A DNA stretch of 40,000 nucleotides from [Scytonema hofmanni] UTEX 2349 (lineage in GTDB: Bacteria > Cyanobacteriota > Cyanobacteriia > Cyanobacteriales > Nostocaceae), in contig NZ_KK073768.1 in NCBI RefSeq assembly GCF_000582685.1, positions 2,308,074-2,348,073 on the forward strand, read 5' to 3'. The translations under genes were made by a program, and so were the position numbers. The notes under the pieces are model-generated. The model worked only from the letters and a program-made list of their open reading frames with translations. It did no database searches and was not told where the DNA came from. Positions 3 to 36,045 of the stretch are shown here, piece after piece (position 1 is the stretch's first letter; each line of letters begins with the position of its first letter).

Positions 3-1481
3 ATTTCTGATTATAGAGCTACTACTAGTGGTGGACCTAACTTTGCTTATGATTTATGTGTACGCAAAGTTACTTTAGAGCAGCGTTTAAGCTTAGACCT
101 CAGTAGCTGGGAATTAGCCTTTAATGGAGCAGAAGCAATTAGAGCAGATACTTTAAAGGCATTTACAGAAGCTTTTGAACCCTGTGGGTTTCGTAGAACC
201 GCCTTCTATCCTTGTTATGGTATGGCAGAAACTACCCTGTTAGTATCAGGAGGAGAGAAGGAGGATGTGCCAGTTGTTTATTCATTAGATCGAGATGCTT
301 TGAGACGAGGAGTGGCGATCGCTACTCCAAATCCGCAAGAAGAACAAACAACACAATTAGTAGTAGGGTGTGGACACTCTTGGGAGGAGGAAACTATACG
401 GATTGTGAACCCAGAAACATTAGTGACTTGTTTAGATTGCCAAGTCGGTGAAATTTGGGTGGCAGGTCCTCATGTAGCTCAAGGTTATTGGAATCGGTCT
501 ACACAGACAGAAAAAACCTTTAATGCCTACACAACAGATACTCAAGAAGGTCCATTTCTCCGCACTGGTGACTTGGGATTTTTGCATGATGAAGAATTGT
601 TTGTTACAGGACGCATCAAAGATGTAATTATCATCCGAGGTCGTAACCATTATCCCCAAGATATTGAACTGACAGTAGAGAAAAGTCATCCAGCACTGAA
701 CCCCGGTAGCGGTGCAGCTTTTAGTGTAGAAATTAACGGTGAAGAAAGGTTAGTTATTGCTCAAGAAGTAAAACGTAATTATTTACGAAACCTCGATGTC
801 AATGAAGTAGCTACAACCATTCGTAGAGCAGTATCGCAGGAACATGAATTACAGTTATACGCTGTGGTATTGTTGAAAACAGGAAGTATCCTCAAAACTT
901 CCAGTGGGAAAATTCAACGTCAAGCTTGTCGAACTTCATTTTTAAACAATACTTTGAGTGTGGTAGGTCTGTGGAAGTTAGAAGATGAGTTATTAGAAGA
1001 CCAAACATTATCAACCACATCTGCATCAAACTCGGCTCATACTTTAAAAAAATCTCAATCTAATTTGACATCACAACCTCTAACTGGTAGTTCTAAATAC
1101 AATTTGGATTCTATCTTGAATTGGATTGAAACATGGTTAGCTAAAAAATTTAAAATACATCCTCATCAAATAGATACTAGTCAATCTTTTGCAGATTTTG
1201 GTATGGATTCAGTTATGTCTGTGGAATTTTCTCAAGCATTAGGAGATTGGTTAGAAATTCCGATAGAGGCAGCTATACTTTGGAAATTCTCCACAATTGA
1301 ATCTTTAGGAAAATATTTAATTACTGAATTACAATTTACCAAACCCTCTTCTTCACAGCTACAATCCCAGCCTCAACAGGAAACTTTATCAGCACTCAAT
1401 CAAATTTCTCAAACAGAAATTGAGTCATTAATTAATCAAGAAATATCAGCATTAGAAAAAATATTGGAGAAAGGGCAATGA
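3..1481 (+). CDS. Fatty acyl-AMP ligase (FAAL; 5' end lies off-window) fused to an acyl carrier protein (loading didomain)
   Basis: Frame 3 is open from nt 3, upstream of the ORF-track Met at 222: ISDYRATTSGGPNFAYDLCV..AFNGAEAIR..FYPCYGMAETTL. It continues with TGDLGF, GRIKDVIIIRGRNHYPQDIE and SSGKIQR, which are adenylate-forming core motifs of the FAAL type. The C-terminal carrier domain carries FADFGMDSVMSVEF. The stop TGA at 1479-1481 overlaps the next ATG (ATGA). Confidence 0.85.
   Translation: MSDYRATTSGGPNFAYDLCVRKVTLEQRLSLDLSSWELAFNGAEAIRADTLKAFTEAFEPCGFRRTAFYPCYGMAETTLLVSGGEKEDVPVVYSLDRDALRRGVAIATPNPQEEQTTQLVVGCGHSWEEETIRIVNPETLVTCLDCQVGEIWVAGPHVAQGYWNRSTQTEKTFNAYTTDTQEGPFLRTGDLGFLHDEELFVTGRIKDVIIIRGRNHYPQDIELTVEKSHPALNPGSGAAFSVEINGEERLVIAQEVKRNYLRNLDVNEVATTIRRAVSQEHELQLYAVVLLKTGSILKTSSGKIQRQACRTSFLNNTLSVVGLWKLEDELLEDQTLSTTSASNSAHTLKKSQSNLTSQPLTGSSKYNLDSILNWIETWLAKKFKIHPHQIDTSQSFADFGMDSVMSVEFSQALGDWLEIPIEAAILWKFSTIESLGKYLITELQFTKPSSSQLQSQPQQETLSALNQISQTEIESLINQEISALEKILEKGQ
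315..322. repeat. HIP1 (highly iterated palindrome GCGATCGC), one of 29 copies counted by eye
   Basis: Copy start positions: 315, 2756, 3040, 5078, 6497, 7342, 9051, 9788, 14376, 15712, 17092, 17529, 19729, 23256, 24057, 26607, 26735, 27468, 28792, 31344, 34113, 34733, 35205, 35619, 35700, 36732, 37714, 38007, 39861. Fewer than 1 copy of a given octamer is expected by chance in 40 kb. Confidence 0.9.
1107..1332 (+). other. Domain: ACP (loading, fused to FAAL)
   Basis: DSILNWIETWLAKKF..FADFGMDSVMSVEF. The phosphopantetheine Ser codon is 1209-1211. Confidence 0.85.
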
Positions 1482-4400
1482 ACAATATTTATGAATCTAA
1501 TCAAGAAAAATCAGTTTCATTACAACGTTTACTTAATGCCCTTAAACAAGCTCGTACTCAAATTGAAAATACGGAACGTCAAAAGACTGAACCAATAGCT
1601 ATTATTGGCATGGGGTTTCGTTTTCCAGGTGGTGTTAAAGACCAAGAGACATTTTGGCAACTATTACATCATGGTGTAGATGCTATTACAGAAATTCCCC
1701 AAAATCGCTGGGATGTTGATCGCTACTATGATCCCAATCCTGACGCTTCCGGGAAAATATACACTCGTTATGGTGGGTTTTTGGATCAGGTAGACCAGTT
1801 TGATCCCCAATTTTTCGGCATTGCTCCCCGTGAAGCAATGGACATGGACCCACAACACCGACTACTGTTAGAAATTACCTGGGAAGCCCTAGAAAACGCT
1901 GCCATAGCACCAGAACGCCTCAAAGGTACTCAAACAGGCTTGTTTGTGGGCATGAGTTCAGATGATTATTCCCAACTCAGTTTAAATTTTGATGATTTAA
2001 ATAGCTTAGATGCTTATAGAGGTTTAGGGAGCGCACGTAGTATTGCCGTTGGTCGTTTGGCTCATATCCTAGATTTACAGGGCTTGGTGCTGCAACTAGA
2101 TACATCCTGTTCATCTTCCTTACTAGGGATTCATTTAGCCTGTCAAAGCTTGCGTTCTGGTGAATGCAATCTAGCTTTAGCAGGTGGTGTAAATTTGATG
2201 CTTTCTCCCATTAATACCATTTTAGGCTGTAAACTTCGGGCTTTATCAGTTGATGGACGTTGTAAAACTTTTGATGCTGGGGCTGATGGTTATGTCAGAG
2301 GAGAAGGTGGTGGCATAGTCGTACTTAAACGGTTGTCTGATGCTATAGCTGATGGTGACAACATTCTAGCTTTAATTCGCGGGTCTGCTGCTAACCATGA
2401 CGGTAAAAGTAATGGATTAACCGCCCCTAATGGTGCTGCTCAAGAAGTAGTAATTAAGCAAGCTTTAGCTAATGCTAGGGTTACACCAGAACAAATTCAA
2501 TATGTAGAGGTACATGGGACGGGTACACCCTTGGGAGATCCGATAGAAGTTTTGGCATTAGGACAAGTTTTGTGTCAAAATCGCTCCAAACAAGAACCAT
2601 TAATGATTGGTTCACTCAAAACTAACTTTGGTCACTTGGAAGCAGCTGCGGGTATAGCCAGTTTAATTAAAGTGGTTTTATGTTTGCAAAACAAACAAAT
2701 TCCACCCCATTTGCACTTTCAAAATCCTAATCCTTATATACCTTGGGATAAATTAGCGATCGCTATTCCTACTCAGTTAACTGCTTTATCAGCACAAGAT
2801 AGTCCACATTTAGCCGGAGTTAGTTGCTTTGGCATGAGTGGCACAAATGTACATCTAATTGTCGAAGCAGCAGCAAATCAAGTTCAAATTGAAAATCATC
2901 AAGATTCACAACTGCATCTATTGACACTCTCAGCTAAAACAGAATCAGCTTTGCAAGATTTAGCCCAAAAGTATCAAGATTTTTTAACTAAGCATCCCTC
3001 AGCCTCTATTGCCGATGTATGTTTTACTGCTAACACAGGGCGATCGCACTTTGACCACCGATTAGCGATTATTGCCCAATCACATCAGCATTTACAACAA
3101 CAATTAAATTCATTCATTCAACAAACACCAGCTACAGAAGTAATTAGCGGTCAACTGACGAGCAAAAAACGCCCAAAAATTGCCTTTCTCTTCACCGGAC
3201 AAGGTTCGCAATATGTGGGGATGGGCAAAGAACTATACCAAACTCAACCAGTTTTCCGCCAATGCTTAGACCAATGCGCTCAAATTCTCAGTTCTGAGCT
3301 AGATTATCCCCTATTGGAAATCTTGTATGCAGACACAACTGAAAATCCCCTGATTCATCAAACAGCCTATACCCAACCTGCCTTATTTGCTTTAGAATAT
3401 GCCCTAGCTCAACTCTGGATTTCTTGGGGAGTGCAACCAGATATAGTTATGGGTCACAGTGTCGGTGAATACGTTGCTGCTTGTGTAGTCGGTATTTTTA
3501 CCTTAGAAGACGGACTCAAACTGATTACACAACGGGGACGGTTAATGCAACAGTTACCAGGTGGGGAAATGGTAGCAGTAATGGCATCAGCCGCACAAGT
3601 ACAAGCAATTATTGACAACTACAAAAACCAAATAGCAGTCGCTGCCTACAACACACCCAACAGCGTAGTAATTTCCGGTACAACCGCAGCCATCAAAGAT
3701 GTTTGTCAACAATTAACACAACAGGGAATCAAAACCAAACCTTTACAAGTATCTCACGCTTTCCACTCCCCTTTGATGCAGCCAATGTTGGCAGAATTTG
3801 CCGAAATAGCAGCAAAAATTACATACCATCAACCGCAAATTCCCTTAATTTCCAACCTCACAGGACAACCAGCCACAGCAGAAATAGCAACTGGACAATA
3901 CTGGGTAAATCATGTCACCCAACCAGTGAAATTTGCTGAGAGTGTCCACACATTACATCAACTGGGTTATAAAATTTGGTTAGAAATTGGCTCTCAGCCA
4001 GTATTGTTAGGAATGGCACGTCAACAGATTCCCGAAACAGAGCATTTAACCCTACCAAGTTTATATCCCAAACTGCCAGACTCACTACAATTATTGAGAA
4101 CTTTAGCTACACTATATGTATATAGTGTAGCAATTCATTGGCAGGATTTTCACAAAGTTAACCCCAACTGTCAGAAAATTCCCTTACCTACCTATCCATT
4201 TCAAAGACAACGCTACTGGATTAATAGTAATTCAGAAGTAAAAAATCAATCCAGCAATTCCTTATCCTATCAAGGTAAAAAACGGCATCCAATTTTAGGT
4301 TATCGTTTGACTGATTTAGCCGTCCTACCCCATACTTACATTTGGGAAACACCAATAGATGAATTTTACCTTTCTTGGTTAAAAGACCATCAGGTCTGGG

Positions 4401-4717
4401 ATACCGTGATTATGCCCCATACAGGATATTTGCAAATAGCTTTTGAAGCTACTCAGGAAGCTTTTAATCAACCCTGGAATAACATTAGTAATTTAAAACT
4501 GTACTATCCTCTGTTCTTGTCCACACAAGAGGAACAAAAAATACAGGTGATTCTCTCGCCACTATCAGATAGTAAAATGTTGCTTCAGGTGTATGGCTGT
4601 CGGCTGAGTAAGTCCTCCTCTGCATCAGAGTGGACTTTATACGCAGATGCACAAGTTTCATCTTCAGCAACCCATCCAGAACCAACAGCAAATTTACCGA
4701 TATTAACAAAAATATGA
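1478..4717 (+). CDS. Type I PKS, KS-AT plus the N-terminal hot-dog half of a DH (module 1, part a)
   Basis: 1079 aa. KS motifs: [51 protein letters not shown] motifs: [25 protein letters not shown]-half motifs: HPILGYRL and [13 protein letters not shown] (HxxxGxxxxP-like). The protein ends ..PILTKI* directly at the LLM start. Confidence 0.9.
1589..2866 (+). other. Domain: KS (PKS module 1)
   Basis: [23 protein letters not shown] has its Cys codon at 2108-2110. HGTGTPLGD and [10 protein letters not shown] supply the two catalytic His. The domain ends at GTNVHLIVE. Confidence 0.9.
3179..4020 (+). other. Domain: AT (module 1), malonyl-CoA type
   Basis: [16 protein letters not shown] has its Ser codon at 3458-3460. 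The HAFH motif ([10 protein letters not shown]) is the malonate-specific signature. The post-AT linker ends at [12 protein letters not shown] (~4223). Confidence 0.85.
4286..4714 (+). other. Domain fragment: DH N-terminal hot-dog half
   Basis: HPILGYRL (4286). The catalytic-His motif [13 protein letters not shown] has its His codon at 4388-4390. The fragment ends with [12 protein letters not shown], equivalent to the end of the first hot-dog, followed by a short linker and a stop. Confidence 0.75.
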
Positions 4718-5757
4718 AATTTGGTTTAATGTTCTTTGCTAGTAGCGAAGATGCTTTAGTGGGTGATAAATATAGTCTGGTGATTGAAAGTGCTAAATTT
4801 GCTGATCAACATGGCTTTTCTAGTATTTGGACACCAGAACGACATTATACTCAATTTGGTAGCCTCTACCCTAATCCGGCGGTATTAAATGCGGCACTAG
4901 CCAGGGAAACTCAACAGATTCGCTTGCAAGCAGGTAGTGTGGTGATGCCTTTGCATCATCCCCTGGAAATAGCCGAAGCATGGGCTTTAGTAGATAATTT
5001 GTCAAATGGCAGGGTGGGAATATCCTTAGCATCTGGTTGGAATCCCAGCGATTTTGCTACTTGTCCCCAAAAGTATAGCGATCGCCAGCAAACCGTTTTT
5101 ACCAATTTAGAAATACTGCAAAAACTCTGGCAAGGGGAATCTCTGAAAATTACCGACGGCAAAGGACAACCAGCAGAAATTCGTATTTATCCTACCCCTA
5201 TACAGCCTCAACTTCCCATTTGGATCACCGCAGCAGGTAATCCTCAAACATACATCAAAGCCGGAGAAATCGGGGCAAACCTGTTAACACACCTACTGGA
5301 TCAAGAAGTAGAAACCCTCGCAGAGAAAATATCTCTCTACCGTCAAGCTAGAGCTAAGTATGGTCACGATCCAGAAGCGGGTATAGTTTCACTCATGTTA
5401 CATACCTTTGTCGGTCAAGACTTCGAGCAAGTACGAGAACAAGCCAGAATCCCTTACTGTAATTATCTCAAAGCTAACATTGAACTGCTCAAAGGACTAG
5501 CTCAAAGTCGGGGGCATGATGTAGATATTACTAAATTACCTGAGCGAGACTTAAAGGAATTTGTTAACTTTTTATATGACCGCTTTGCTATCTCTAGAGG
5601 CTTAATCGGTACTCCTGAAACTTGTCAAAAGTTACTAGAACAGCTAGACGGCATTGGAATTGATGAAGTAGCTTGTTTATTAGATTTTGGTTTAAGTAAA
5701 GAACTTATTCTCCAACATTTACTAGACCTGAATCAACTACGAGAAAATTACAATCAT
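4714..5757 (+). other. Domain: luciferase-like monooxygenase LLM-1 (inserted between the DH halves)
   Basis: [71 protein letters not shown]. Paralogous to LLM-2 and LLM-3. Matches my recollection of the natural-product LLM domain family (TIGR04020-like). Confidence 0.8.
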
Positions 5758-8358
5758 CATACACAAACTACTGGTATTCCCCAGCGAGCAATTTTTCCCA
5801 CTACCCTCAACAATGGTTCTCAAAAGTCGCTGGCAATTTCAACCACATCCCCTACTACTCCTCTAGAATCATTAGAAACCATCCGGTTGCGCTGTCAAGA
5901 CCAAAGAAACGCCCGCGAATTTTATCAATTATTACAGAAAAACGGCTTACAGCTACAGGAAACTTATCAAGGTATCCAAAATCTATGGTTAGGTGAAAGT
6001 GAAGCATTAGCGGAAGTGAAGTTACCTCATGCTGTTAACTTTGGTAATAGTTTTCAAGTCCGAGCCGCAGTATTAGATGCTTGTCACCAAGTATTAGGAG
6101 CTACATTATTAGGTAAAATCCTATCTGGGGGAACAACCACCGATACACAGACTAATACCCCGGAAATGTCCTTGTATTTACCTACAGGGATCAAGAGTTT
6201 TCAAATTTATGAATCTTTAGGAACAGAAGTTTGGAGTCATGCGGTACTGCGACAACATCGAGGTATTGATGGTATAGCTGCTCATCATGAGATTGAAGGA
6301 GATATTTACATCTTCAATCACAACGGTAAATTGGTAGTTAAAGTCACTGGATTGCAGATGCAAAGCACCAGTTCCAGTAAGTCTACCAGTCAGCAACAAA
6401 AAGGGGCAAATTGGTTGTATGAATTACAATGGCAACCCCAACCAGAAAAAGAAGCAGTATCAAGCACAACAGAGCCGGGTTTATGGTTAATTTTTGGCGA
6501 TCGCTCTGGTATCAGTCAAAATCTAGTACAGTTATTAGAAGCTCAAGGTGATACTTGTTGGCTAATCCAACATAGTGAAAACTCCCAAAACCAAACCCCA
6601 AACCAAATAGTCATTACACCTGGAAATCAAACCCAGATCCAACAACTCATCACTAACATCTTAGCCCCAGGAGTTCCCCCCTGTCGCGGAATTGTGCATC
6701 TATGGAGTTTAGATGTTACTCCCAGTCAAGAAACAACTTTAGCATCTCTACAACAGGATCAAGTCCTAACTACCACAAGTCTTTTACACTTAACACAAGC
6801 AATTATCCAAACTACCACAACTCAAACTCTACCCTTGTGGGTTGTAACTCAAGATGTGCAGAAAGTCGGAGCCCAAACCACCCCCCGTTCTCCTGCACAA
6901 GCTCCAATTTGGGGTTTAGGACGAGTTATAGCCACAGAACATCCCAAACTGTGGGGAGGATTAGTAGATTTAGACGGAGAATCTACACCAGAAACATCCG
7001 CTAAACAATTACTGCAAATATTACAAGCAGATAGTCAAGAAGATCAAATAGTTTTACGTCAAGGACAACGCCATATTCTCCGCTTAGTGCGTAGTCAAAA
7101 AACACCAACTTCATCCCCAACCATCCAACCCGATGCGACATATTTGATTACCGGGGGATTTGGACATTTTGGACTACAAAGCGCCCAATGGTTAGCCCAA
7201 AAAGGAGCAAAACACCTAGTTTTAATCGGACGCAAAAACCCATCTAGTCAAGCACAGGAAGTCATTAATACCTTAGAAAAAACAGGAGTTCAAGTTCTGG
7301 TTTTCCAAGGGGATGTATCTGATCCAGTAGACATGACAGAGGCGATCGCCACCATTAAATCCCACTGTCCACCCCTAAAAGGAATTTTCCACATCGCAGG
7401 TTTCAGCCAACAAAGCCTATTATCAGATATCACCACCGACGATTTACAGGACATGTTGCGTCCTAAAGTTTTTGGCACATGGAACTTACACCAACTCACC
7501 CTAGAACTAAACCTGGACTTCTTCTTCAGTACCTCTTCCATGTCCCCAGTATTTGGTTCTCAAAAACTAGGACACTATGCAGCCGCTAACTACTTCCTAG
7601 ATATTTTTGCTGAGTATCGTCACAGTATAGGTTTACCAGCCTTAACCGTGAATGTTGGCGCTCTAGCAGGTGGAGGAATGGCTTTAGCTTCACCGGAAGG
7701 GGAAAAATATACTACCCAGATAGGTTTGAATTTAACCCATCCTGCTGATTTATTAGATGTGGCTGGAGGCTTTTTCACATCAGACGGTGTAGCAAATATC
7801 GTTATCGCCGATATGGATTGGTCAATCTTCAAACCTCTTTATGAAGGAACTACAGGCAAACTACTACTCGCACAAATAGAGGCACAAAGCAGTGTTGCTC
7901 AGGGAAAACCAGGAGAACGAGATATCTTTTGGCAACAGTTGGAGACATTACCAGAAAGTGAACGTTATCACCAAATAGTAGCTTATTTACAACAAGAAGT
8001 AGCACAAATTCTCGGTTACTCTGCTAATCAACCCCTGTTTAACCCAGAGGTTGGCTTCTTTGATTTAGGGATGGATTCTTTACTAGCTGTTGCTTTCAAA
8101 AATAAGCTAGAAACTAGTTTGGGTTCTTCTTTACCCACTGTATTGATTTTTGAACGACCGAATGTTACTAGTTTGACAGAGTACATTATTACCGAGGTCT
8201 TCAATTGGCAAATTTCAGCAGATTATGATCACAACAAACCAAAAGCAGAAGAACTAAGTTTAGAAGCCGAACTTTCGCAAACCATAGAACAATTATCTGA
8301 ACAAACACTAGAAGATTTAATTAATCAAAAATTAGCTAGAGCTTTGGAGGACGACTAA
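4714..8358 (+). CDS. PKS subunit LLM-DH(C-terminal half)-KR-ACP (module 1, part b)
   Basis: The probable start is ATG 4714, forming an ATGA overlap with the upstream stop at 4715-4717. The ORF-track Met at 4630 lies inside the upstream gene. Motifs in order: [41 protein letters not shown] (LLM); ETYQGIQNLW and AAVLDACHQVLG (DH C-half); YLITGGFGHFG, PKVFGTWNL and GHYAAANYF (KR); FFDLGMDSLLAV (ACP). Confidence 0.85.
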   Translation: MKFGLMFFASSEDALVGDKYSLVIESAKFADQHGFSSIWTPERHYTQFGSLYPNPAVLNAALARETQQIRLQAGSVVMPLHHPLEIAEAWALVDNLSNGRVGISLASGWNPSDFATCPQKYSDRQQTVFTNLEILQKLWQGESLKITDGKGQPAEIRIYPTPIQPQLPIWITAAGNPQTYIKAGEIGANLLTHLLDQEVETLAEKISLYRQARAKYGHDPEAGIVSLMLHTFVGQDFEQVREQARIPYCNYLKANIELLKGLAQSRGHDVDITKLPERDLKEFVNFLYDRFAISRGLIGTPETCQKLLEQLDGIGIDEVACLLDFGLSKELILQHLLDLNQLRENYNHHTQTTGIPQRAIFPTTLNNGSQKSLAISTTSPTTPLESLETIRLRCQDQRNAREFYQLLQKNGLQLQETYQGIQNLWLGESEALAEVKLPHAVNFGNSFQVRAAVLDACHQVLGATLLGKILSGGTTTDTQTNTPEMSLYLPTGIKSFQIYESLGTEVWSHAVLRQHRGIDGIAAHHEIEGDIYIFNHNGKLVVKVTGLQMQSTSSSKSTSQQQKGANWLYELQWQPQPEKEAVSSTTEPGLWLIFGDRSGISQNLVQLLEAQGDTCWLIQHSENSQNQTPNQIVITPGNQTQIQQLITNILAPGVPPCRGIVHLWSLDVTPSQETTLASLQQDQVLTTTSLLHLTQAIIQTTTTQTLPLWVVTQDVQKVGAQTTPRSPAQAPIWGLGRVIATEHPKLWGGLVDLDGESTPETSAKQLLQILQADSQEDQIVLRQGQRHILRLVRSQKTPTSSPTIQPDATYLITGGFGHFGLQSAQWLAQKGAKHLVLIGRKNPSSQAQEVINTLEKTGVQVLVFQGDVSDPVDMTEAIATIKSHCPPLKGIFHIAGFSQQSLLSDITTDDLQDMLRPKVFGTWNLHQLTLELNLDFFFSTSSMSPVFGSQKLGHYAAANYFLDIFAEYRHSIGLPALTVNVGALAGGGMALASPEGEKYTTQIGLNLTHPADLLDVAGGFFTSDGVANIVIADMDWSIFKPLYEGTTGKLLLAQIEAQSSVAQGKPGERDIFWQQLETLPESERYHQIVAYLQQEVAQILGYSANQPLFNPEVGFFDLGMDSLLAVAFKNKLETSLGSSLPTVLIFERPNVTSLTEYIITEVFNWQISADYDHNKPKAEELSLEAELSQTIEQLSEQTLEDLINQKLARALEDD
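5866..6363 (+). other. Domain fragment: DH C-terminal hot-dog half
   Basis: FYQLLQKNGLQLQETYQGIQNLWLGESEALAEVKLP is GYxYGPxF-like. AAVLDACHQVLG is the LDAxxQ/H motif with its Asp codon at 6076-6078. LPTGIKSFQIY is also present. Confidence 0.7.
6409..7850 (+). other. Domain: KR (module 1), structural plus catalytic subdomains
   Basis: WLYELQWQPQP..GLWLIFGD marks the start. The NADPH site is YLITGGFGHFG. The catalytic residues are Lys in RPKVFGTWNL, Ser in FSTSSMS and Tyr in GHYAAANYF. Confidence 0.85.
7966..8200 (+). other. Domain: ACP (module 1)
   Basis: YHQIVAYLQQEVAQILGY..FFDLGMDSLLAV. The Ser codon is 8077-8079. An acidic helical C-terminal tail follows and may be a docking element. Confidence 0.85.
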
Positions 8359-11300
8359 TGAGTGGGGAGTCAAATAACGTGCAGAATCTGTCCTCTTTAC
8401 AGCGTTCAGTTTTGCTGATTGAAAAATTGGAAGCGAAGATTAAGCGCTTAGAGTCTGCTAGGACAGAACCAATTGCTATTATTGGTATGTCCTGCCGTTT
8501 TCCGGGAGGTGCTGATAATCCTCAACAGTTTTGGAAAATTTTACACTCAGGTATTGATGCGGTAACAGAAGTTCCTGCAAATCGTTGGAACATAGCAGAT
8601 TATTATGATGAAAATCCGCATACTCCTGGGAAATTTTATACAAAATCAGGGGGATTTTTATCAGATGTAGATCAATTTGATCCTCTTTTTTTTGGGATTT
8701 CTGCCAGAGAAGCCGTTAATATAGACCCCCAACACCGCTTACTATTAGAAGTAACTTGGGAAGCATTAGAAAATGCTGGATGTATCCCCCAACGAAACCA
8801 AGGCAGTCCTACAGGAGTTTTTGTCGGTATTACCCTGAATGACTATGGTTCGATCGCTAAACAAACCAGATCCGATGTCAGTCAAGAAGCTTACGGAGTC
8901 ACAGGTTCACCCTCCTATGCAGCAGCAGGACGGATTTCCTATACTTTTGGCTTTACGGGTCCTTGTATGGCTATTGATACCGCTTGTTCATCTTCCCTAG
9001 TAGCCATTCATCAAGCTTGTCAAAGTCTTAGACAACAAGAATGTCAAATGGCGATCGCTGGAGGAGTGAACCTAATCTTACTCCCTGATAGCATGATTGC
9101 CACCGCTAAGGCTGGTATGCTGTCTAGTGATGGTCGTTGTAAAACCTTTGATGCTACTGCTGATGGTATTGGACGTGGGGAAGGATGCGGAATATTAGTT
9201 CTTAAACGTCTGTCAGATGCACAAGCTAATGGTGATAATATTTTAGCTGTAATTCGCGGTTCAGGAGTCAATCAGGACGGTCCTAGTAGTGGGTTTACAG
9301 TGCCTAATTGTGCTTCTCAGCAACAAGTCATGCGTCAAGCCTTGAAAATGGCGCAAATAGAACCTGCTGAAGTTAGTTATGTAGAAGCTCATGGTACAGG
9401 AACACCTTTAGGAGATCCCATAGAACTGCGTTCATTAGCAAAAATCTATGGTTCTCATCGTACTCACGATAACCCCTTATTCGTTGGTTCGGCAAAAACT
9501 AATATTAGTCACGTAGAAACGGCTGCCGGGGTAGCAGGAGTAATTAAAGTTATTTTACAATTACAACATCAACAGATTGCCCCCCATTTACATTTAAAAA
9601 ATCCCACAAATCACTTTAACTGGGAAGATTTTCCTTTAGTTGTTCCCACCCAAATTACACCCTGGCGCGTACAATCTGGTAGCCGCATCGGTGTGGTAAA
9701 CTCATTTGGGGCTACAGGAACTAACGCTCATATTGTTTTAGCAGAAGCACGAACACCATTAAAACCGGAAAATTCTGGTTTATTAGAGCGATCGCTCCAT
9801 TTATTAACTCTTTCTACCAAAACAGAACCAGCATTAAAAGATTTAGTAACCCTTTATCAAAATTGGTTTAAACAAAATACAGATTTAAAAATAGCTGATA
9901 TTTGCTATAGTGCTAACACAGGTCGCTCTCACTTTAAGCATCGTTTAGCTTTACTTGTGGCTGAACCTCAAGAATTAGCCGCAAAACTCCAAAATTTAAC
10001 CATTAGTCTGTCACAAGAGCAAAATACTGAAGAAAGTTCTAGCATTGCCGGAATGTTTCAGGGACAACTTGCTGCTAATAGTAGTGTACCTAATGTTGCT
10101 TTTCTGTTTACCGGTCAAGGTTCTCAGTATATTGATATGGGACGGGAACTTTATCAAACTCAACCCCTGTTCCGGCGGATTTTAGAGCAATGCGATCAAA
10201 TTCTACGTTCCGAGTTAGAAAAACCCCTATTAGAAATTCTTTACCCCCAAAATACAAATCAATCTCCATTTTCCCTAATTGACCAAACAAATTATACTCA
10301 ACCTGCCTTATTTGCCTTAGAATATGCCTTAGCTCAACTATGGATTTCCTGGGGAATTAAGCCTGCGGTGGTGATGGGTCATAGTGTGGGAGAATACGTA
10401 GCCGCTTGTATAGCCGGAGTCTTTAGTTTAGAAGATGGGTTAAAATTAATTGCTGCTCGTGGTCGTCTCATGCAGTCATTACCCCAAAATGGGGCGATGT
10501 TGGCTGTATTTGCAGATGCAAAACGGGTAGCAGAAATTATTGCTCCTTATCAAAATAGAGTTGCGTTGGCGAAGCCCGCCGTAGGCATCGCTGCCTACAA
10601 TGGAGCGCAAAATATTGTCATATCTGGGGAAAATCAGGCAATAGCAGCCATTAAAACCACCCTAGAGGCAGAAGGAATTGAAAGCCGCCCCCTGAACACC
10701 TCTCACGCCTTTCATTCACCTCTAGTAGACCCGATTTTAGAGCAGTTAGAACAAATTGCCAATCAAATAGAAATCCATCCTCCCCGCATTCCCATTGTTT
10801 CCAACTTAACAGGAGAAACATTATCAATCAATCAACCCTTAAACGGAAAATACTGGCGACAGCATAGCCGAGAAGCCGTAAAGTTTACCACAGGATTAGC
10901 AACATTAGTAGAAAAAGGCTATGAAACCTTTTTAGAAATTGGAGCAAAGCCCGCCTTGTCTAAAATGGGGCAGAGATGTAAATTAGGTGATAACCTCTTG
11001 TGGCTTTCTTCCCTAGTAGCAGGACAATCAAACTGGGCAACATTATTCAATAGTCTAGCTCAATTATATGTGCGTGGTGCAGAGGTGAATTGGTCAGGAT
11101 TTGATCAAGATTACCCACGCCAAAGATTTATTTTACCTAATTATCCTTTTCAACGTCAGCGTTACTGGTTGAAAATACCAAATGCAGATATGTCGTCCCA
11201 AAAAGCCATTGCAACTGCACCCATGAACGGAGAGGTTCCAGAACCAATTCCAGAACCAAAACCCCATACCTCTGCATCCTCAAAACAAGAACAAATTATC

Positions 11301-14300
11301 AAACTCTTACAATCTCTGATTGCTGAAGCACTGCAAACATCTCCAGACACAGTAGATATTCATACCCCATTAGTGGAAATGGGTGCAGATTCTATCGTGT
11401 TTATGAAAACAGGACAGCAGTTAGAATTGGACTTTGGGGTACGCATTCCTATCCGCAGATTATTTGAAGACTTATCTACGTTAAATGCTTTAGGTACTTA
11501 CATTGGCGAAAATCTACCAGCCGAATTTAAGTTTACTGATAATTTTACTGACAATCAACCTGTATCGCCACCTGTAACTTCAGAATCTCCAGATCCCCAG
11601 ACTGAGAACAAAGCAGTAGAATCTGCACTTAGTCAAATTCCTCCCACAGCAGAACCAGTTGGTACTACTGCTTTAGAGCGGATCATGAGTCAGCAATTAC
11701 AAACTATGTCTCAACTCATGTCCGAACAGTTAGCAGTTTTAAGAGGAGAAACTACCACCACACCACCACAGTTTATTCCTAACCAGAATCCTGTTAACTC
11801 ACCACAGACAACAATTAAAAACACTAAACGTCAGGAATTTTGGGAACGACGCGAATATAAACCCACATTAAGCGATATTCAAGACCAAGCTGCTAATTTT
11901 CCGCTAACTGTACCAACTAATAAAGAAATGCAATTTAGTCTTTATTATTTTGGCAGTTACGATGCAGAATTTACTCAAGATAAATATAGCCTTCTGTTTG
12001 GGGGAGTAGAATACGCAGACCAAAATGGCTTTACCTCTGTATGGCTACCTGAGCGTCACTTTCATGCTTTTGGTGGTTTTTCTCCTAACCCTTCTATTCT
12101 CTGTGCTTCTCTGGCTAAAGTTACCAAAAATATACAACTGCGGGCTGGTAGTGTAGTTTTACCCCTACATCATCCTGTGCGAGTAGCCGAAGATTGGGCA
12201 ATTATTGATAATATTTCTCAAGGACGAGTAGGAATTTCCTTTGCTTCCGGTTGGCATCCCCATGATTTTGTCTTTGCCCCAGAAGCTTATGATGACCGTC
12301 GAGAAATTATGTTTGAGGGCATCGAAACAGTACAAAAACTCTGGCGCGGAGAGTCAATTCAGCTACTTAGTGGTTCTGGTAACATGGCTGAAATCCGTAC
12401 CTTCCCCATGCCTCAGCAAAAAGAGTTACCTGTTTGGGTAACAATAGTTAATAACCCAGATACTTACATGAGAGCCGGGGCAATGGGAATCGGGGTTTTG
12501 ACTAACCTGATGGGGCAAACTGTAGAAGATTTAGCCCGTAATATTGCCATTTATCGAGAATCACTGGCACGTCATGGTTTTGATCCCCATGTTGGACGAG
12601 TGACATTATTGTTACATACTTATATTGGTACGGATATTCAACAAGTACGAGAAAAAGCCCGCAAACCATTCCAAAATTATCTCACCTCCTCTATTGGTCT
12701 ATTTCAAAGTTTAGTGAAAAGCCAAGGTTTACAGATGGCTGATTTTGAAAAGATGAGCGAGGATGATAAAGATTATATTCTGTCCGCAGCTTATGACCGT
12801 TATGTACAAACCAGTGCTTTAATTGGCACACCAGATTCTTGTATTGAAATTGTGGAAAAACTCCTAACTATTGGAGTTGATGAAATTGCTTGTTTAATTG
12901 ATTTTGGGGTGGAAGAAGAAGCTGTATTAGCCAGCTTACCCCACGTTAAGACTTTGAAGGAACGGATAAATAAAGTTAAAACCGATGATTGGTTTTATCG
13001 CTTAGATTGGCAACAACAGCCCCGCGATCTTCCTTTACAACCATCTCCAAAATCTGGACATTGGTTAATTTTTGCGGATGTCCAAGGTGTAGGCACAGCT
13101 TTAGCGCAACAATTACAGGTAGATGGTCAAACCTGTACGCTGATTTATCCCCAAGGTAGCAGTATTTCATTACCTAACGGGGCTTTGGAAATAGATCCTA
13201 CTGACCCAAAAGCTTTTAACCAACTTTTACAAAATCAACTTACAGCTAGTGAACTTCCCCTAAGTGGAGTTATTTATCTTTGGAGTCTCAACAGCCCATT
13301 ATCTCAGCAATTGACAGTTGATTTACTCCAGCAAACTCAACAAACGGTTTGCGGTGGTGTATTGCATTTAGTTCAAGCTTTAGACCAACAACCAGAGTTA
13401 AAAAATGCTTGTTCGCAAATGTGGCTAATTACACAACAAGCGGTTGCATCAGACAATACCGCACCAACAGGCATTGCTCAAGCATCCCTATGGGGATTCG
13501 GTCGAGTTATAGCCCTAGAATATCCAGAATTGTGGGGTGGTCTGATCGATATTGATAGGGATAATACCACAGCACAAGTAGAGCAAATATGGCTAGAAAT
13601 TAGAGCGCAACTGGGGAAAAAATCACAAGCTGAAGATCAGGTTTTATTACACCAAGAAAAACGTTATGTTGCCCGTTTAGTCCGTCAAACTGTTGGTAAT
13701 TCTGATATTAATAATTCCTCTGTTAATTTAGATCTAAAAGGCACTTATTTAATTACAGGTGGTTTGGGTGCTTTGGGTATTCGGTTAGCACAGTGGTTAG
13801 TTGATCGAGGAGTGCATCATTTAGTTTTGTGTGGGCGTTCTGCTCCTGCGGCTAAAATTCAAAAAACCATCACTCAGTTACAGCAACAGGGTATACAAGT
13901 GATAGTGGCTCAGGTAGATATATCTAAATTTAATGATTTATCTGAGTTGTTACAACAAATTCAAGGTAAAAATCAAGACAACTGTCCGCCACTGCAAGGG
14001 ATTTTCCACTTAGCTGGGTTGTTAGATGATGGGGCATTATTCCAGCAAACTTGGAAACGGTTTGATGCTGTATTTGCTCCTAAGATTTTAGGTACTTGGA
14101 ATCTTCATGTTTTAACTCAAGAACTGCCACTTAAACATTTTGTTCTGTTTTCTTCCATCGCTTCTTTATTGGGGTCTCCCGGACAAAGTAATCATGCGGC
14201 AGCTAATGCTTTTATTGATGCTTTAGCTCATTATCGTCAAGCTAATGGCTTGCCTGCTGTGAGTATAAATTGGGGTTCTTGGACAGAAATCGGGAAAGTA

Positions 14301-17300
14301 ACCAGATTAGAAGGATCGCAACAACAACGCTGGCAAGAATATTTTGATAAACTTTGGCGTAGTTATGGTATGGAGGCGATCGCCCCTAAAGCCGGTTTAC
14401 ACGCTCTGGAACAACTACTCAATCAACCTCCTGTACAAGTTGGGGTATTTCCCATTGATTGGTCTAAGTTCTGTGAGTCTCTGGGGGTTGAACAAAAACC
14501 TTTACTACTCTATTTAACCCAACCGGAAACAACATCAACAAGCACTTCCCCTATTAGGATTCCCTTAAGTGAAGCTCAAAAGCAACTGTGGCTATTAGCG
14601 CAAATTGTGGAAGAAGGGTCAATTGTCTATAATGACAACGTAAACTTAGAATTATGTGGTGATTTACACTTAGAGATTTTAAAAGAATCTATACACACTG
14701 TTGTGGAACGACAGGAAGCCCTCCGCACGATTATTGATCCTCAAGGAGAATGGCAAGAAATTCTACCAACTCTCAAAGTAGATATTCCCTTGGTTGACCT
14801 TTCCAGTACCAAGGATGAACAGGAGCAATGTTTACAAGATTGGTTGATTCAACGCAGTCAAAAGCCCTTAAATCTAACCACAGATCCTTTATTTCAAGTG
14901 GAAGTGTTGAAACTAGGACAACAGCATCATGTTCTAGTAATCACTGTTCATCACATTATTTCTGATGGTTGGTCTATAGAAAATATCCTCAAAGAAATTG
15001 CTCTGATTTATTCTGCGCTTTGTGAGGGGGCAGATGTTAAATTAGATACTCCCTTACAATTTCGGGAATTTCTCCACTGGCAAACCAACCGCAGCCAAAG
15101 TTCGGAAATGTTAAGCCATGAGTCCTTTTGGTTAGAGCAGTTTGCTGATTCTATTCCGGTGCTAGAACTGCCTACAGATCGGACTCGTCCCCTCCGCAAA
15201 ACTTATCATGGCAACCGTCAAACCCGTATCACTCCACCCCATCTGCGGGAGCAGTTACGGCAGTTTAGTCAGGGTCAAGGATGTACATTATTTATGACTT
15301 TGCTGGCTGCCCATTTTGTGTTGCTGCATCGTCTTAGTAGACAAGCAGAAATAGTTGTAGGTATTCCTACGGCTGGACGATTTCTTGCTAGTAGCGAAAC
15401 AATGGTGGGATATGCAACGCATTTATTACCTATCCGCAGTTGTTTTCAAGCAAACCTGTCTTTCTCAGCTTATTTGGCGGAAATTCGCAGCAGATTATTG
15501 GCAGCTTATGAACATCAAGATTATCCTTTTGCCCAGTTATTAAAGCAACTCAATCTAAAAACTGATAGTAGCCGTACTCCTTTGGTATCTGTGACATTTA
15601 ATTTAGAACCGCCTGTACCTACAGTGTCGTTGAAGAATTTAGACACGGCAATGATGTCACGACCTGTTAGCTTTACTCACTTTGACTTGCATTTTGTAGT
15701 GATTGACATGGGCGATCGCCTGATTTTGGAGGCAAAATATAATACAGATTTGTTTAATGATGCTACCATTGAGCGTTGGTTAGGTCATTTCCAAACTTTG
15801 TTAGAGGAAATCATTACCCAACCAAATCAAGAGATTGCTACTTTACCATTATTAACTCAGCTAGAACGTCAACAATTGTTAATAGACTGGAATTCTGGGT
15901 TAACACAATATTCCTCAGCACATTTAGAAACAGAATGTGTTTATCAACGTTTTGAAAAGCAGGTTAGTCAAAATCCTGATGCTTTAGCAGTGGTATTTGC
16001 AAAACAAAATTTGACATACCAGGAGTTAAACACAAGAGCAAATCAACTGGCTGTACATTTACGCAACTTAAATATTCCATCAGCTGGACGAATAGTTGTT
16101 TATGCTGAACGTTCTTTGGTGGCTTTGGTGGCTATATTGGGAATCTGGAAAGCAGGAGGGGTTTATGTTCCTATTGATGCTGCTAACACACCCCCTCAGC
16201 GTTTGGCGCTACTGCTAGAGGATATTCAACCAACTGCACTGTTAACTCAAACATCCTACAAATCAAATTTACTGGCTTCTCTCTCTTGTCCGGTGGTATT
16301 TTTGGACAAAGAAGGGAATGATAACTCAGAAAATCAATCACCAGAAATTCTCGACCCTAATTTTCCCCAGGTAACACCCGATGACTTAGCATATATTATC
16401 TTTACCTCTGGTTCTACAGGTCAGCCCAAGGGAGTAGCCATTAAACATCGTCATCTAGCTGCTTATACTACCAGCATGACTCAGCGTCTAGGTTTGCAGT
16501 CTGGTATGAGTTTTGCGACAGTATCCACTTTTGCGGCTGATTTGGGTTATACCGCGATTTTCCCCACATTGTGTACAGGTGGAACATTACACATCATTAC
16601 TCAGGAAACGGCTACTGACCCTCAAGCCTTAGCTACATACTTTAGCCAACATCAAATTGATTGTTTGAAGATTGTACCTGCTCACCTCAACGCTTTGTTA
16701 GAAGGTGAAAAATCATCACAAGTATTACCCCGACATACTCTGGTTTTAGGAGGAGATACCCTTGCTTGGGAGTTGGTGGGGAAAATTCAAACTTTAGCAC
16801 CGCAATGTCGGATTTTTAATCACTACGGACCTAGTGAAACGACGGTAGGGGTTTTAACTTTCCTGATAGATGATCAGCATTCGCCAAAATCATCTGCTAC
16901 TGTTCCTATAGGTCGTCCCCTGCCTCATGTCTGCGTTTATATTTTGGATCAGTATCAGCAACCCGTCCCGATTGGAGTTCCCGGAGAATTATATATTGGG
17001 GGTGCAAGTGTAGCGCCAGGATACCTAAATCGGGCAGAATTAACAACCGAGAAATTTATCCTTAATCCTTATTCTACAGAAACTGGCGAAGGCGATCGCC
17101 TTTACAAAACTGGAGATTTAGCCCGCTATCTCCCAGATGGTAATATTGAGTTCCTGGGCAGAATTGATAATCAAGTAAAAATACGGGGTTATCGCCTGGA
17201 ATTAGGTGAAGTAGAATCTGTGTTAAATCAGCATCCAGGTGTGCAACAAGCTGTAGTTTTGGCTTGGGAACAAGAACAAACAGGAGAAAAACGTTTAGTA

Positions 17301-21128: not shown

Positions 21129-21869
21129 ATGTTAGGAATATTGGGAGGAATGGGACCATTAGCATCAGCAGAATTTGTCAAAACGATTTATGATTACAAT
21201 GTTTTTGGCAACAAGGAACAAGATGCACCAAGAGTAATCTTAAATTCTAATCCCACAATTCCAGATAGAACCAGTTTTCTGTTGAAAGGTGATTATGATT
21301 TATTGTTACTAAAATTAATAGAATCTGCCCAACAATTGGATGATTTACAGGTGTCTAAAATTATCATTTGTTGTGTCACATCCCATTATTTATTGCCCTA
21401 CTTTCCTCAGAAAATAAAAGAGAAAATAATTTCTTTAGTTGATGTTTGTTTGCAGGAAGTTTGGCATTCACAAAGCTGTCATCTGTTGCTGTGTACTAAT
21501 GGAACTCGGCAACTAAATGTATTCCAAACCAGTGATTTATGGGGCATGGCAGCAGATTATATTATTTTTCCTGATGAAAAAGAACAAATTGCTATCCACA
21601 ATATGATATATCAAATTAAGGTGAATAAACAGAGTTTTGATTCTGCTATCATTTTCTTGAACAATTTAATGAATAAGTATAATGTTAGTTATGTTATGTC
21701 TGGTTGTACAGAAATACATTTACTTAACCGATATATTCATTATCAAAAGTATAAAAATCAAGGAGATATCACCAATGATATTTTTTTAGATCCTTTAATG
21801 ATTGTTGCCACTAGATTAGAAAAATTTTTATGTGATAACGATATATTTTTTTCTCCTGTTTATTCCTAA
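21129..21869 (+). CDS. Aspartate/glutamate racemase family protein (McyF-like), embedded between the two NRPS genes
   Basis: 246 aa. The N-terminus MLGILGGMGPLASAEFVKTIYD is typical of the family. Both catalytic-Cys motifs are present: IIICCVTSHY (CNTAH-like) and MSGCTEIHLL (GCTE). An AGGAAAA motif sits just 5' of the ATG. The gene is visibly more AT-rich than its neighbours in the lines I sampled. Confidence 0.8.
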   Translation: MLGILGGMGPLASAEFVKTIYDYNVFGNKEQDAPRVILNSNPTIPDRTSFLLKGDYDLLLLKLIESAQQLDDLQVSKIIICCVTSHYLLPYFPQKIKEKIISLVDVCLQEVWHSQSCHLLLCTNGTRQLNVFQTSDLWGMAADYIIFPDEKEQIAIHNMIYQIKVNKQSFDSAIIFLNNLMNKYNVSYVMSGCTEIHLLNRYIHYQKYKNQGDITNDIFLDPLMIVATRLEKFLCDNDIFFSPVYS

Positions 21870-32089: not shown

Positions 32090-32170
32090 AAAATTTAGTT
32101 GTTTACCCAAGATACAAAAATTATGATCAAAAATTTTAGTTATCACCTGTAGTCAGAAAAAATAACAATC

Positions 32171-33043: not shown

Positions 33044-33244
33044 AAAGTGGGCGTTGCTGATGTTAGGGATGAAAGTAAATCCAAAACCTTGTAAATCCGC
33101 GAATTAGCCATTTTAATTTTCACTCCCCTATCCAAGACATGTAAATCGTTCAAACTCTTATGCGATAAATGTTTGGGCTTATCTTAGTGCCATTCGTCAA
33201 TAGGCTTTGAGACGCGCTAACCCTGCAATTATGCTTTAATATTT

Positions 33245-35992: not shown

Positions 35993-36045
35993 GGCGTTTA
36001 TTTACTTTACTCACTTATTTAATTGTAGTAAGCGTGCATAGCGCT

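Follow-up and report, generated by a model that had tools for sequence, protein, structure and literature searches.

Adenylation (A) domains of the MtaG type are interrupted domains with an embedded monooxygenase. A dehydratase (DH) that is split between proteins has been published for the cremimycin polyketide synthase (PKS) proteins CmiP3/CmiP2 (PDB 6K97, 'Fusion DH', as cited in PMC11284099), and the fused protein was shown to dehydrate, according to the report in PMC11284099. Among the luciferase-like monooxygenases (LLMs), MupA alpha-hydroxylates beta-ketoacyl-ACP in vitro and forms a dimer or tetramer (PMC10952193). Two studied pathways are relevant here for their diol products. The cyanochelin B proteins BAU16016 and BAU16015 (the latter being CcsC), encoded on plasmid 2 of Leptolyngbya sp. 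NIES-3755, correspond to a threo 2,3-dihydroxy-2-methylacyl unit (PMC12628792). The published figure legend gives an Ox domain and no DH, and the supplement of PMC12628792 makes no mention of dehydratase, monooxygenase, CcsC, BAU16015 or BAU16016. In occidiofungin/burkholdine biosynthesis of Burkholderia, OcfJ/OcfI-like proteins fit the C6/C7 diol of 3-amino-5,6,7-trihydroxystearic acid (PMC9792986), while the tables available from the occidiofungin literature list OcfJ as 'NRP synthetase' and OcfI as 'flavin-dependent monooxygenase'. An LLM embedded in a DH, or an interrupted dehydratase, has no relevant account in the literature that we searched, also under TIGR04020 and Atu3671, and we found no name there for an alpha,beta-dihydroxylating module of the Ccs/Ocf type.

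We describe here two genes, A and B, that most likely encode one PKS extension module of the order KS-AT-[DHn/LLM-DHc]-KR-ACP, in which DHn and DHc are the two hot-dog halves of the DH and the slash marks the gene break. They lie in a 40,000-nucleotide stretch of the cyanobacterium [Scytonema hofmanni] UTEX 2349 (the window), with the following features:

1478..4717, plus strand: gene A, 1079 aa; KS-AT and the N-terminal hot-dog half of a PKS DH (DHn)
4286..4713, plus strand: DHn, the first hot-dog half; HPILG and HxxxDxxxxP, with the His of the catalytic position at codon 4388-4390 (CAT)
4714..4717, plus strand: ATGA start/stop overlap of genes A and B (ATG 4714-4716, TGA 4715-4717)
4714..8358, plus strand: gene B, 1214 aa counted from the ATG; LLM-DHc-KR-ACP and a C-terminal helical tail
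4714..5742, plus strand: LLM domain, an FMN-dependent luciferase-like monooxygenase of the MupA/Atu3671 family (TIGR04020)
5743..5865, plus strand: linker between LLM and DHc; low-complexity, predicted to be disordered (pLDDT <50 at model residues 515-536)
5866..6390, plus strand: DHc, the second hot-dog half (PF14765); LDACHQ (DxxxQ), with the Asp at codon 6076-6078 (D455 of gene B)
6391..8358, plus strand: KR, ACP and C-terminal helical tail (Pfam KR, PP-binding); ACP motif GMDSL

Gene A matches the Pfam families for KS (PF00109, PF02801), AT (PF00698) and PKS_DH_N (PF21089, aa 937-1039, E 8e-17); the last match sits at the very C-terminus, and the protein stops about 40 residues beyond it. 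Gene B matches Bac_luciferase (aa 1-317, E 1e-48), PS-DH (PF14765, aa 387-555, E 6e-22), KR and PP-binding. The NCBIfam model NF045894 for a KS-AT-KR-ACP protein is covered at positions 1-887 by gene A and at 930-1514 by gene B. The linker between LLM and DHc varies widely in length among homologs. An ATGA overlap is a junction typical of translational coupling, and the other two junctions of the first four genes in the window (1478-1481 and ~8356-8360) are overlapping as well. GCA_014698435.1 is annotated with the same two genes. The initial annotation, made from the letters and a list of reading frames, is borne out to the base with respect to the two frames, the ATGA at 4714-4717 and an AAAAA at 4708-4712 just 5' of it. 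Pfam and an alignment with the CurK DH likewise confirm its claim that gene A ends in DHn with the His at 4388-4390, and Pfam agrees with its reading of gene B as an LLM followed by DHc, with the Asp at 6076-6078, and by KR-ACP. It had also seen no docking sequences at the break, and inspection of the protein sequences on both sides revealed no docking helices.

The A5 run immediately 5' of the ATGA and the existence of fused homologs speak for a break that is only apparent, caused either by a one-base homopolymer error or by a programmed -1 ribosomal frameshift, both of which would yield a single protein of 2293 aa. The initial annotation had listed these two options besides a DH that is genuinely interrupted and split. 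We regard both as extremely improbable. Two independent metagenome contigs (L089 and L090, ~90% identical) have the same ATGA overlap and the same frame relation with no indel; they read TTAATAGAAGTATGA where the window has TTAACAAAAATATGA, their AATAGAAGTATGA contains no A-run, and a GGAGG Shine-Dalgarno-like motif is located 13 nt 5' of their ATG. Finished genomes and plasmids (CP001472, AP017310, NZ_CP101526) contain the identical split too, and overlapping junctions are the norm in the operon of the window. Furthermore, the junctions differ among lineages, hence there is no conserved slippery site, and ACAAAAATA is not an X XXY YYZ heptamer. On the alignment with L089/L090 and the multi-phylum survey we rejected an assembly error or homopolymer frameshift, and programmed frameshifting was rejected on the same grounds, together with the lack of a heptamer and of a conserved junction sequence. 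What stands from the three options is the interrupted and split DH, which recurs in both contigs and in many phyla.

The DHn/LLM-DHc layout occurs, split or fused, in at least eight bacterial phyla. The split form is present in Cyanobacteriota, Acidobacteriota, Chloroflexota, Actinomycetota, Bacteroidota, Myxococcota and Pseudomonadota, and a fused form in Verrucomicrobiota (P0272). The junctions take several forms: some genes overlap by ATGA or GTGA or by 16 nt, others are separated by an in-frame stop plus spacer or by spacers of 12 or 566 nt; the ATGA overlap is also seen in Acidobacterium capsulatum, Streptomyces NRRL S-455, Lewinella and Burkholderia arboris. In A. capsulatum the upstream protein ends in DHn and the next one reads LLM-DHc-KR-ACP. 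Counts required an exhaustive HMMER search with DHn, since a word-indexed homolog search returned a single match. Among the best 149 representatives, canonical DHs account for 97 and fusions to an LLM for two, while 30 proteins end 25 aa or less from DHn. PS-DH is found in more than 50 of the 120 LLM-DHc homologs listed, and P0061 is the sole PS-DH carrier among them with AT and DHn upstream in the same chain. Fused single-chain versions are rarer than split ones; P0152, with 2212 aa and the order KS-AT-DHn-LLM-DHc-KR-ACP, has the size and order that had been predicted for a fused module. We show here that the gene break is real and ancient and that it coincides exactly with the native start of an LLM of the MupA family, which lies within the inter-hot-dog linker of a DH.

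A comparison with PDB sequences matches the end of gene A to residues 5-137 of the CurK DH and gene B residues ~387-554 to its residues 146-291, placing the insertion in the linker between the two hot-dog halves, as had been proposed. Both halves also match 6K97. Judged from these alignments, DHn and DHc are complementary and would together make up one double hot-dog rather than being two unrelated remnants. The His (4388-4390) and D455 occupy the catalytic His and Asp positions of CurK, both invariant columns in an alignment with 24 canonical DHs. Other motifs deviate: DHn keeps the His and Pro of HxxxGxxxxP with Asp in place of Gly, LPTGI replaces LPFxW in DHc, and at the position of GYxYGPxF, DHc reads LQLQETYQ (GLQLQETYQ). 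The stretch ETYQGIQNLW, which had been assigned to the second half, is indeed part of DHc, but it holds no Tyr-Gly-Pro. Loss of the YGP motif was rejected as proof of an inactive DH, because the CurJ DH also departs from it (HLGQSF) and is without the Tyr; LQLQETYQ alone is thus no demonstration of inactivity. When DHn and DHc were joined artificially with the LLM deleted, the chain modelled as one compact domain (pLDDT 84, pTM 0.85), although the use of canonical DHs as alignment biases this model towards the canonical fold. It superposes on the CurK, CurF and CurJ DH crystal structures with target-normalised TM-scores of 0.90-0.92 over the whole target. The full chimera with LLM reached a pTM of 0.56, with lower confidence in parts of DHc, and at this value the placement of the LLM relative to the DH is not readable from the model. 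The possibility that 5866-6363 is a mere KR linker, named in the initial annotation as a refuting case, is rejected by the PF14765 match, the CurK alignment and the superposition on the DH fold; the region is the second DH hot-dog.

Physical re-assembly of the halves is what the joined model predicts. The degenerate LQLQETYQ and the lower model confidence in parts of DHc could also point to halves that are decaying remnants and no longer assemble. Genes A and B would then associate elsewhere on their surfaces, through LLM dimerisation or contacts between KS-AT and KR, for instance, or the ACP would shuttle between them, and the oligomeric state of MupA (PMC10952193) suggests that an LLM could supply such an interface. 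We judge this very unlikely. Both halves keep recognisable Pfam scores and fold-defining motifs in every lineage surveyed, the joined halves are modelled as a confident double hot-dog, and no alternative docking elements are seen at the break. Moreover, wherever upstream sequence is available, we saw no DHc without a DHn partner, the DHn of four loci being assigned solely by alignment because tblastn missed it there.

The LLM of gene B matches TIGR04020 over the full profile (positions 1-341 of 341) with 488.2 bits (cut-off 244.45). It shares 48% identity with the OX domain of PuwE (PDB 6KET) and begins at the native N-terminus of free-standing LLMs, relatives of which start with MEFGLMFF. Most likely its substrate is an ACP-bound beta-keto thioester that it hydroxylates at the alpha carbon, as suggested by analogy to MupA (PMC10952193) and by the diols in the products of the Ccs and Ocf homologs. 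Elsewhere in the window, the last A domain of 21966..30272 is interrupted by an embedded LLM.

Taken as a whole, we favour, with a probability of roughly 60%, one split module with a captured LLM and a fold-complemented scaffold DH, in which alpha-hydroxylation followed by ketoreduction yields a diol. An LLM gene that stood alone and had a start codon of its own would have been captured inside a PKS gene; at its 3' end it would have become fused to the rest of the module, whereas its 5' end would have persisted as a gene boundary, with later fusion in some lineages. The overlapping stop and start would provide both polypeptides in roughly equal amounts, and the DHn of gene A would pack on the DHc of gene B, so that the double hot-dog serves as inter-subunit interface without docking domains. 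The KS would yield a beta-ketoacyl-ACP, the LLM would hydroxylate its alpha carbon with FMNH2 and O2, as for MupA, and the KR would reduce the ketone to a 2,3-dihydroxyacyl chain. The DH would leave the beta-hydroxyl in place and act as scaffold and interface despite its conserved His/Asp pair. For the cluster of the window, a polyhydroxy-acyl-Asp-X-Tyr carboxamide is the predicted product, and a second diol would come from the next module, KS-AT-ACP-LLM-KR-ACP. This module 2 has an LLM 47% identical to that of gene B and no DH, PuwE also has an LLM without DH, and four homologs that lost both catalytic residues (His to Gln, Tyr or a gap; Asp to Glu) keep LLM and KR. Catalysis by the DH therefore appears dispensable. 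In the two known products the matching positions are an alpha,beta-diol or an alpha-methyl-alpha,beta-diol, hence the beta-hydroxyl is kept, which argues against net dehydration; the coupled dehydration and oxygenation suggested in the initial annotation is not needed.

The pattern of residue conservation is harder to reconcile with a scaffold. His and Asp are both retained in 14 of the 18 surveyed loci and are lost only together, and HPLLG and HxxxGxxxxP are well preserved across phyla. Joint retention and loss of this kind resembles the outcome of selection for a functional pair and is not explained if the DH is purely structural. A re-assembled DH might accordingly be active and cooperate with the embedded LLM, the embedding serving to hand an intermediate between the two active sites. 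KR and DH could produce a 2-enoyl-ACP as substrate for epoxidation or dihydroxylation by the LLM, the epoxide then opening to a vicinal diol; alternatively, LLM, KR and DH acting in this order could give an enol and then a 2-oxoacyl chain. A diol end-product fits epoxidation and subsequent hydrolysis, and LLM-family epoxidases exist, such as the mensacarcin Msn enzymes cited in PMC8739492. We nevertheless hold an active DH to be unlikely. The closest characterised LLMs (MupA, OocM and PuwE OX) alpha-hydroxylate beta-keto intermediates without a DH, the DH-free module 2 and the four His/Asp-less homologs speak against it as they retain LLM and KR, and KR-less relatives cannot supply a beta-hydroxy substrate. 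The second route would end in a 2-oxo product, at odds with the diols of the two known products. The KR-less variants (LLM-DHc-ACP, with or without TE) still keep the Asp, and neither a simple scaffold nor a simple active DH explains them.

The KR type bears on this question in both directions. B-type KRs normally feed a DH, A-type KRs rarely do. OcfI-type KRs possess the LDD motif of the B-type, in favour of an active DH, while the KR of the window (no LDD, Trp present, thus A-type by motif) and that of CcsC (also without LDD, A-type by motif) count against it. Because the family mixes LDD and non-LDD KRs, KR stereotype is uninformative as a discriminator of mechanisms.

A further idea, which we consider quite unlikely, is that interrupted DH and LLM constitute a two-site didomain that forms vicinal diols and is assembled across two polypeptides by fold complementation. 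Such a didomain might work by dehydration to a 2-enoyl thioester, oxygenation by a flavin peroxide and ring opening, or the DH His/Asp pair might act on a labile alpha-hydroxy-beta-keto intermediate. If true, hundreds of clusters would contain a kind of PKS processing unit that has so far escaped recognition.

With the split module and its embedded LLM, the PKS dehydratase joins the short list of assembly-line domains that are interrupted by another enzyme. The architecture suggests that a split hot-dog fold may replace docking domains as glue between PKS subunits, which would be useful for split-module engineering. Its genomic signature, PKS_DH_N at the end of one protein and a TIGR04020 LLM at the start of the next with PS-DH after it, offers a simple means of predicting a 2,3-dihydroxyacyl unit in orphan clusters of many phyla. 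It also corrects the working annotation of OcfJ/OcfI and CcsC in two studied pathways. The initial annotation knew of no precedent for this architecture, which is too strong: a split DH has been published for CmiP3/CmiP2, and the exact split is contained in the cyanochelin B and occidiofungin sequences. There it is present but not pointed out, the available legend and tables giving only 'Ox' or 'flavin-dependent monooxygenase'.

The cyanochelin B proteins BAU16016 (FAAL-ACP-KS-AT-DHn) and BAU16015 (LLM-DHc-cMT-KR-ACP) are split as in the window, and their LLM-DHc is 48.7% identical to that of the window over 96% of the query. Both clusters are cyanobacterial and encode FAAL-primed lipopeptides with amino-acid beta-hydroxylases. 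Unlike the window, the cyanochelin B system has a cMT between DHc and KR and FAAL-ACP fused to the KS protein; its junction is a 12-nt spacer instead of an ATGA overlap, and its downstream NRPS differs. For OcfJ/OcfI we analysed the B. arboris homolog in place of strain MS14, since the ocfI copy of Burkholderia sp. FXe9 has internal stops. These proteins read FAAL-ACP-KS-DHn and LLM-DHc-KR-ACP, share the ATGA overlap with the window and are 47.6% identical in LLM-DHc over 100% of the query, but unlike the window, the module has no AT and its KR is B-type (LDD). The DHs of both systems keep His and Asp, and by colinearity their diols can be assigned to the DHn/LLM-DHc module. In CmiP3/CmiP2, the DH double hot-dog is likewise distributed over two consecutive polypeptides, yet those halves have no insert, whereas in the window an LLM of 340 aa and its linker place 386 residues ahead of DHc. 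The fused cremimycin protein is reported to dehydrate, while the DH of the window probably leaves the beta-hydroxyl in place. MupA, OocM and PuwE OX belong to the same LLM family, and alpha-hydroxylation is the chemistry expected to be common to all. In contrast to the embedded LLM of the window, MupA and OocM exist as stand-alone proteins, and in the PuwE PKS/NRPS hybrid the OX domain comes after an aminotransferase domain; none of the three has been described inside a DH fold. Interrupted A domains of the MtaG type similarly carry an auxiliary LLM inside a core assembly-line domain, but there the host is an A domain that stays one chain, whereas the DH of the window is split over two.

The + strand of the window carries a FAAL-primed PKS/NRPS operon, and the features discussed here are:

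1478..4717, + strand: gene A, 1079 aa
4714..8358, + strand: gene B, 1214 aa
4714-4717, + strand: ATGA overlap of genes A and B (ATG 4714-4716, TGA 4715-4717)
4708-4712, + strand: AAAAA run
within 8358..21068, + strand: module 2, with an ACP at ~11300-11500 and an LLM at ~12000-12880
21129..21869 and 30479..34600: tailoring and export genes (Asp/Glu racemase, CmlA-like diiron beta-hydroxylase, cupin_8/JmjC protein, MFS transporter)

According to Pfam, gene A encodes KS, AT and then PKS_DH_N at aa 937-1039 (E 8e-17), the first hot-dog half of a dehydratase (DHn). Gene B encodes Bac_luciferase at aa 1-317 (E 1e-48), a luciferase-like monooxygenase (LLM), followed by PS-DH at aa 387-555 (E 6e-22), the second half (DHc), KR and ACP. 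Gene A matches positions 1-887 and gene B positions 930-1514 of NF045894, a curated KS-AT-KR-ACP model of 1515 positions, and hence both genes form one module with DHn-LLM-DHc in between. The residues and codons quoted in the initial annotation were all found in place. Its claim that the LLM is inserted between the DH halves, with the second hot-dog in gene B, agrees with alignments to PDB sequences, in which the end of gene A covers CurK DH residues 5-137 and gene B residues ~387-554 cover residues 146-291. LKDHQVW and VLDACHQ contribute, respectively, the His and the Asp that match the catalytic residues of CurK; these two positions are invariant columns in an alignment with 24 canonical DHs. 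The GYxYGPxF position is degenerate (LQLQETYQ); since the CurJ DH departs from the motif at the same place, this leaves the activity of the window DH undecided. Joined without the LLM, DHn and DHc were modelled as a single domain (pLDDT 84, pTM 0.85) with target-normalised TM-scores of 0.90-0.92 to the CurK/CurF/CurJ DHs, a model that indicates compatibility, not proof, because the alignment behind it consists of canonical DHs. In the model of the full DHn-LLM-DHc chimera (pLDDT 80.5, pTM 0.56) the domain folds are predicted confidently, the LLM placement is not. Judged by alignment and modelling, the two DH pieces are predicted to be complementary halves of one fold.

The break between gene A and gene B is real. 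GCA_014698435.1 (NCBI contig JACJTA010000074.1) is annotated with the same gene pair. Two homologous loci, L089 and L090, are independent metagenome contigs from different samples (~90% identical); both keep the ATGA overlap with no indel and read TTAATAGAAGTATGA at the junction where the window reads TTAACAAAAATATGA, and thus the A5 run is incidental. Both also have GGAGG upstream of the gene B-type ATG. The junction has no conserved slippery site. The frameshift options considered earlier, a homopolymer error at the A5 run or ribosomal frameshifting, are rejected. Both remaining junctions among the first four window genes overlap as well (ATGA at 1478-1481, TAATG around 8358).

The separation of DHn from LLM-DHc is old and occurs widely. 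Searching for homologs of LLM-DHc gave many proteins of ~1070-1100 aa with the order LLM-PS_DH-KR-ACP, besides LLM-DHc-cMT-ACP and LLM-DHc-ACP, the latter with or without TE. The closest relatives of the window copy are 51-56% identical in LLM-DHc among the matches listed, and the window copy is an ordinary member of an unnamed class. Genomic contexts and a genome scan were surveyed for DHn at the upstream gene end.

Loci in which DHn ends the upstream gene, with the type of junction
Acidobacterium capsulatum (finished genome): ATGA overlap
Streptomyces sp. NRRL S-455: ATGA overlap
Lewinella: ATGA overlap
Bryobacteraceae MAG: GTGA overlap
Scytonema HK-05 and Tolypothrix: 16-nt overlap
Ktedonobacteria and Myxococcota MAG: stop, then short spacer
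L003 (metagenome-assembled genome GCA_022822685.1): 566-nt gap

In Vicinamibacterales, Solibacteraceae, another Acidobacteriota MAG and Bradyrhizobium oligotrophicum the two parts are fused in frame. The comparison of fused and split orthologs proposed in the initial annotation thus finds both, the fused form for example in the homologous proteins P0152, a complete module of 2212 aa (KS-AT-DHn-LLM-DHc-KR-ACP), and P0194 (2132 aa, same order without AT). Among the best 149 representatives of an exhaustive HMMER search with DHn, 30 end <=25 aa after DHn, 2 are fused to an LLM and 97 are canonical DHs. The closest relatives include variants without KR (L003, and P0014, P0016 and P0024 from Hapalosiphonaceae, Westiellopsis and Scytonema PCC 10023). 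They are arranged as KS-AT-DHn / LLM-DHc-ACP, some with a TE, and most retain the DH Asp; lacking a KR, they provide no beta-hydroxy substrate for the DH. A free-standing LLM gene may have been captured inside a PKS gene with its own start codon kept, since gene B begins with the same start residues as free-standing 350-aa LLMs (MEFGLMFF...).

The LLM of gene B is a full-length TIGR04020 protein (MupA/Atu3671 family; 488 bits vs a cut-off of 244) and shares 48% identity with the PuwE OX domain (PDB 6KET). In vitro, MupA hydroxylates the alpha carbon of an ACP-bound beta-keto thioester (PMC10952193), and the PuwE product is a 3-amino-2-hydroxyacyl unit made without DH or KR (PMC4219810). Because of this family membership and known chemistry, alpha-hydroxylation followed by KR reduction is the most economical reading. 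The KS would produce a beta-ketoacyl-ACP, the LLM would hydroxylate its alpha carbon and the KR would reduce the ketone to a 2,3-dihydroxyacyl chain, while the DH fold would act as a frame holding the LLM and as an interface joining the two subunits. As noted before, no docking sequences are present at the break: no docking helices flank the gene A/gene B junction. Module 2 (KS-AT-ACP-LLM-KR-ACP) has an LLM 47% identical to that of gene B, placed between two ACPs; it has no DH halves, and an extra ACP occupies the position that DHn has in module 1. This combination of LLM and KR without DH speaks against an active DH, which would either dehydrate before the LLM oxygenates or use His/Asp on the labile alpha-hydroxy-beta-keto intermediate. 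So do four loci (L011, L016, L018 and L020; 3/4 in-frame fusions) that keep LLM and KR despite exchange of the DH His for Gln, Tyr or a gap and of the Asp for Glu. That they disappear as a pair hints that His and Asp function, or degenerate, in concert. We consider an active DH unlikely, however we retain it because a mere scaffold does not account for a His/Asp pair that is otherwise conserved and lost only together, nor for the Asp still present in KR-less relatives. KR motif types are mixed across the family and therefore do not discriminate between scaffold and active DH.

Module 2 is followed by two NRPS modules with codes for Asp (DLTKVGHVGK) and DARAFSLMVK (no residue assigned); 21966..30272 contributes a Tyr code (DASTIAAVCK), then the last NRPS module with a Gly-like code (DILSMGMIWK) and PCP-TE. 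These Stachelhaus-type codes were read against GrsA-PheA. A third LLM interrupts the last A domain (protein aa 1772-2090, ~27280-28240). LLM insertions in A domains are known, and this one presumably matches the MtaG-type arrangement that converts a terminal Gly to a carboxamide. The tailoring and export genes suggest beta-hydroxylated and D-configured residues in a siderophore-like lipopeptide; as a reasonable guess, the product would be a polyhydroxy-acyl tripeptide amide that carries beta-hydroxylated residues and may chelate a metal. Downstream, in a region comprising 35929..37241 and 37374..38522, ORF 36684..37241 encodes the C-terminal portion of a DDE (ISAs1-like) transposase. In GCA_014698435.1 the cluster lies on JACJTA010000074.1 and the DUF711 gene on JACJTA010000091.1; these contigs end at the ISAs1-like insertion sequence, and the window thus seems to derive from an assembly of higher contiguity.

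A split DH is described for cremimycin CmiP3/CmiP2 (PDB 6K97; PMC11284099), and PuwE has an LLM/OX domain embedded in a cyanobacterial PKS/NRPS protein. The searchable literature gave no description of a DH double hot-dog with an LLM inserted in the linker between its halves and, in most cases, a gene break where the LLM begins. Yet the 'no precedent' of the initial annotation is too strong at sequence level, where the combination can be seen in database entries and in two studied clusters, those of cyanochelin B and occidiofungin. In the former (Leptolyngbya sp. NIES-3755 plasmid 2), BAU16016 (FAAL-ACP-KS-AT-DHn) and BAU16015 (CcsC; LLM-DHc-cMT-KR-ACP) are separated by a 12-nt spacer. The published figure legend names KS, AT, Ox, cMT and KR, and DH is absent from that legend. 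The unit assigned to the split-DH module by colinearity is threo 2,3-dihydroxy-2-methylacyl (PMC12628792), its alpha carbon being quaternary. For occidiofungin, Burkholderia arboris (L093, NZ_CP101526.1, 1595..9324) encodes an OcfJ-like FAAL-ACP-KS-DHn protein (1469 aa), overlapping by ATGA with an LLM-DHc-KR-ACP ORF (1107 aa) whose 3324 bp equal the size published for ocfI. The gene table names ocfI 'flavin-dependent monooxygenase' and ocfJ 'NRP synthetase' (PMC9494966); by predicted domain content, OcfJ and OcfI together are one PKS module. The ocfI copy in Burkholderia sp. FXe9 (L092) has internal stop codons. Occidiofungin contains 3-amino-5,6,7-trihydroxystearic acid (PMC9792986; PMC8877233). 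By colinearity, the C6/C7 diol would stem from a C12 starter and the split-DH module, the C5-OH from the next KS-KR module and the C3-NH2 from the KS-AT-ACP-aminotransferase module; the observed gene order matches. Neither pathway has lost the DH His or Asp, and still both products retain the beta-hydroxyl.
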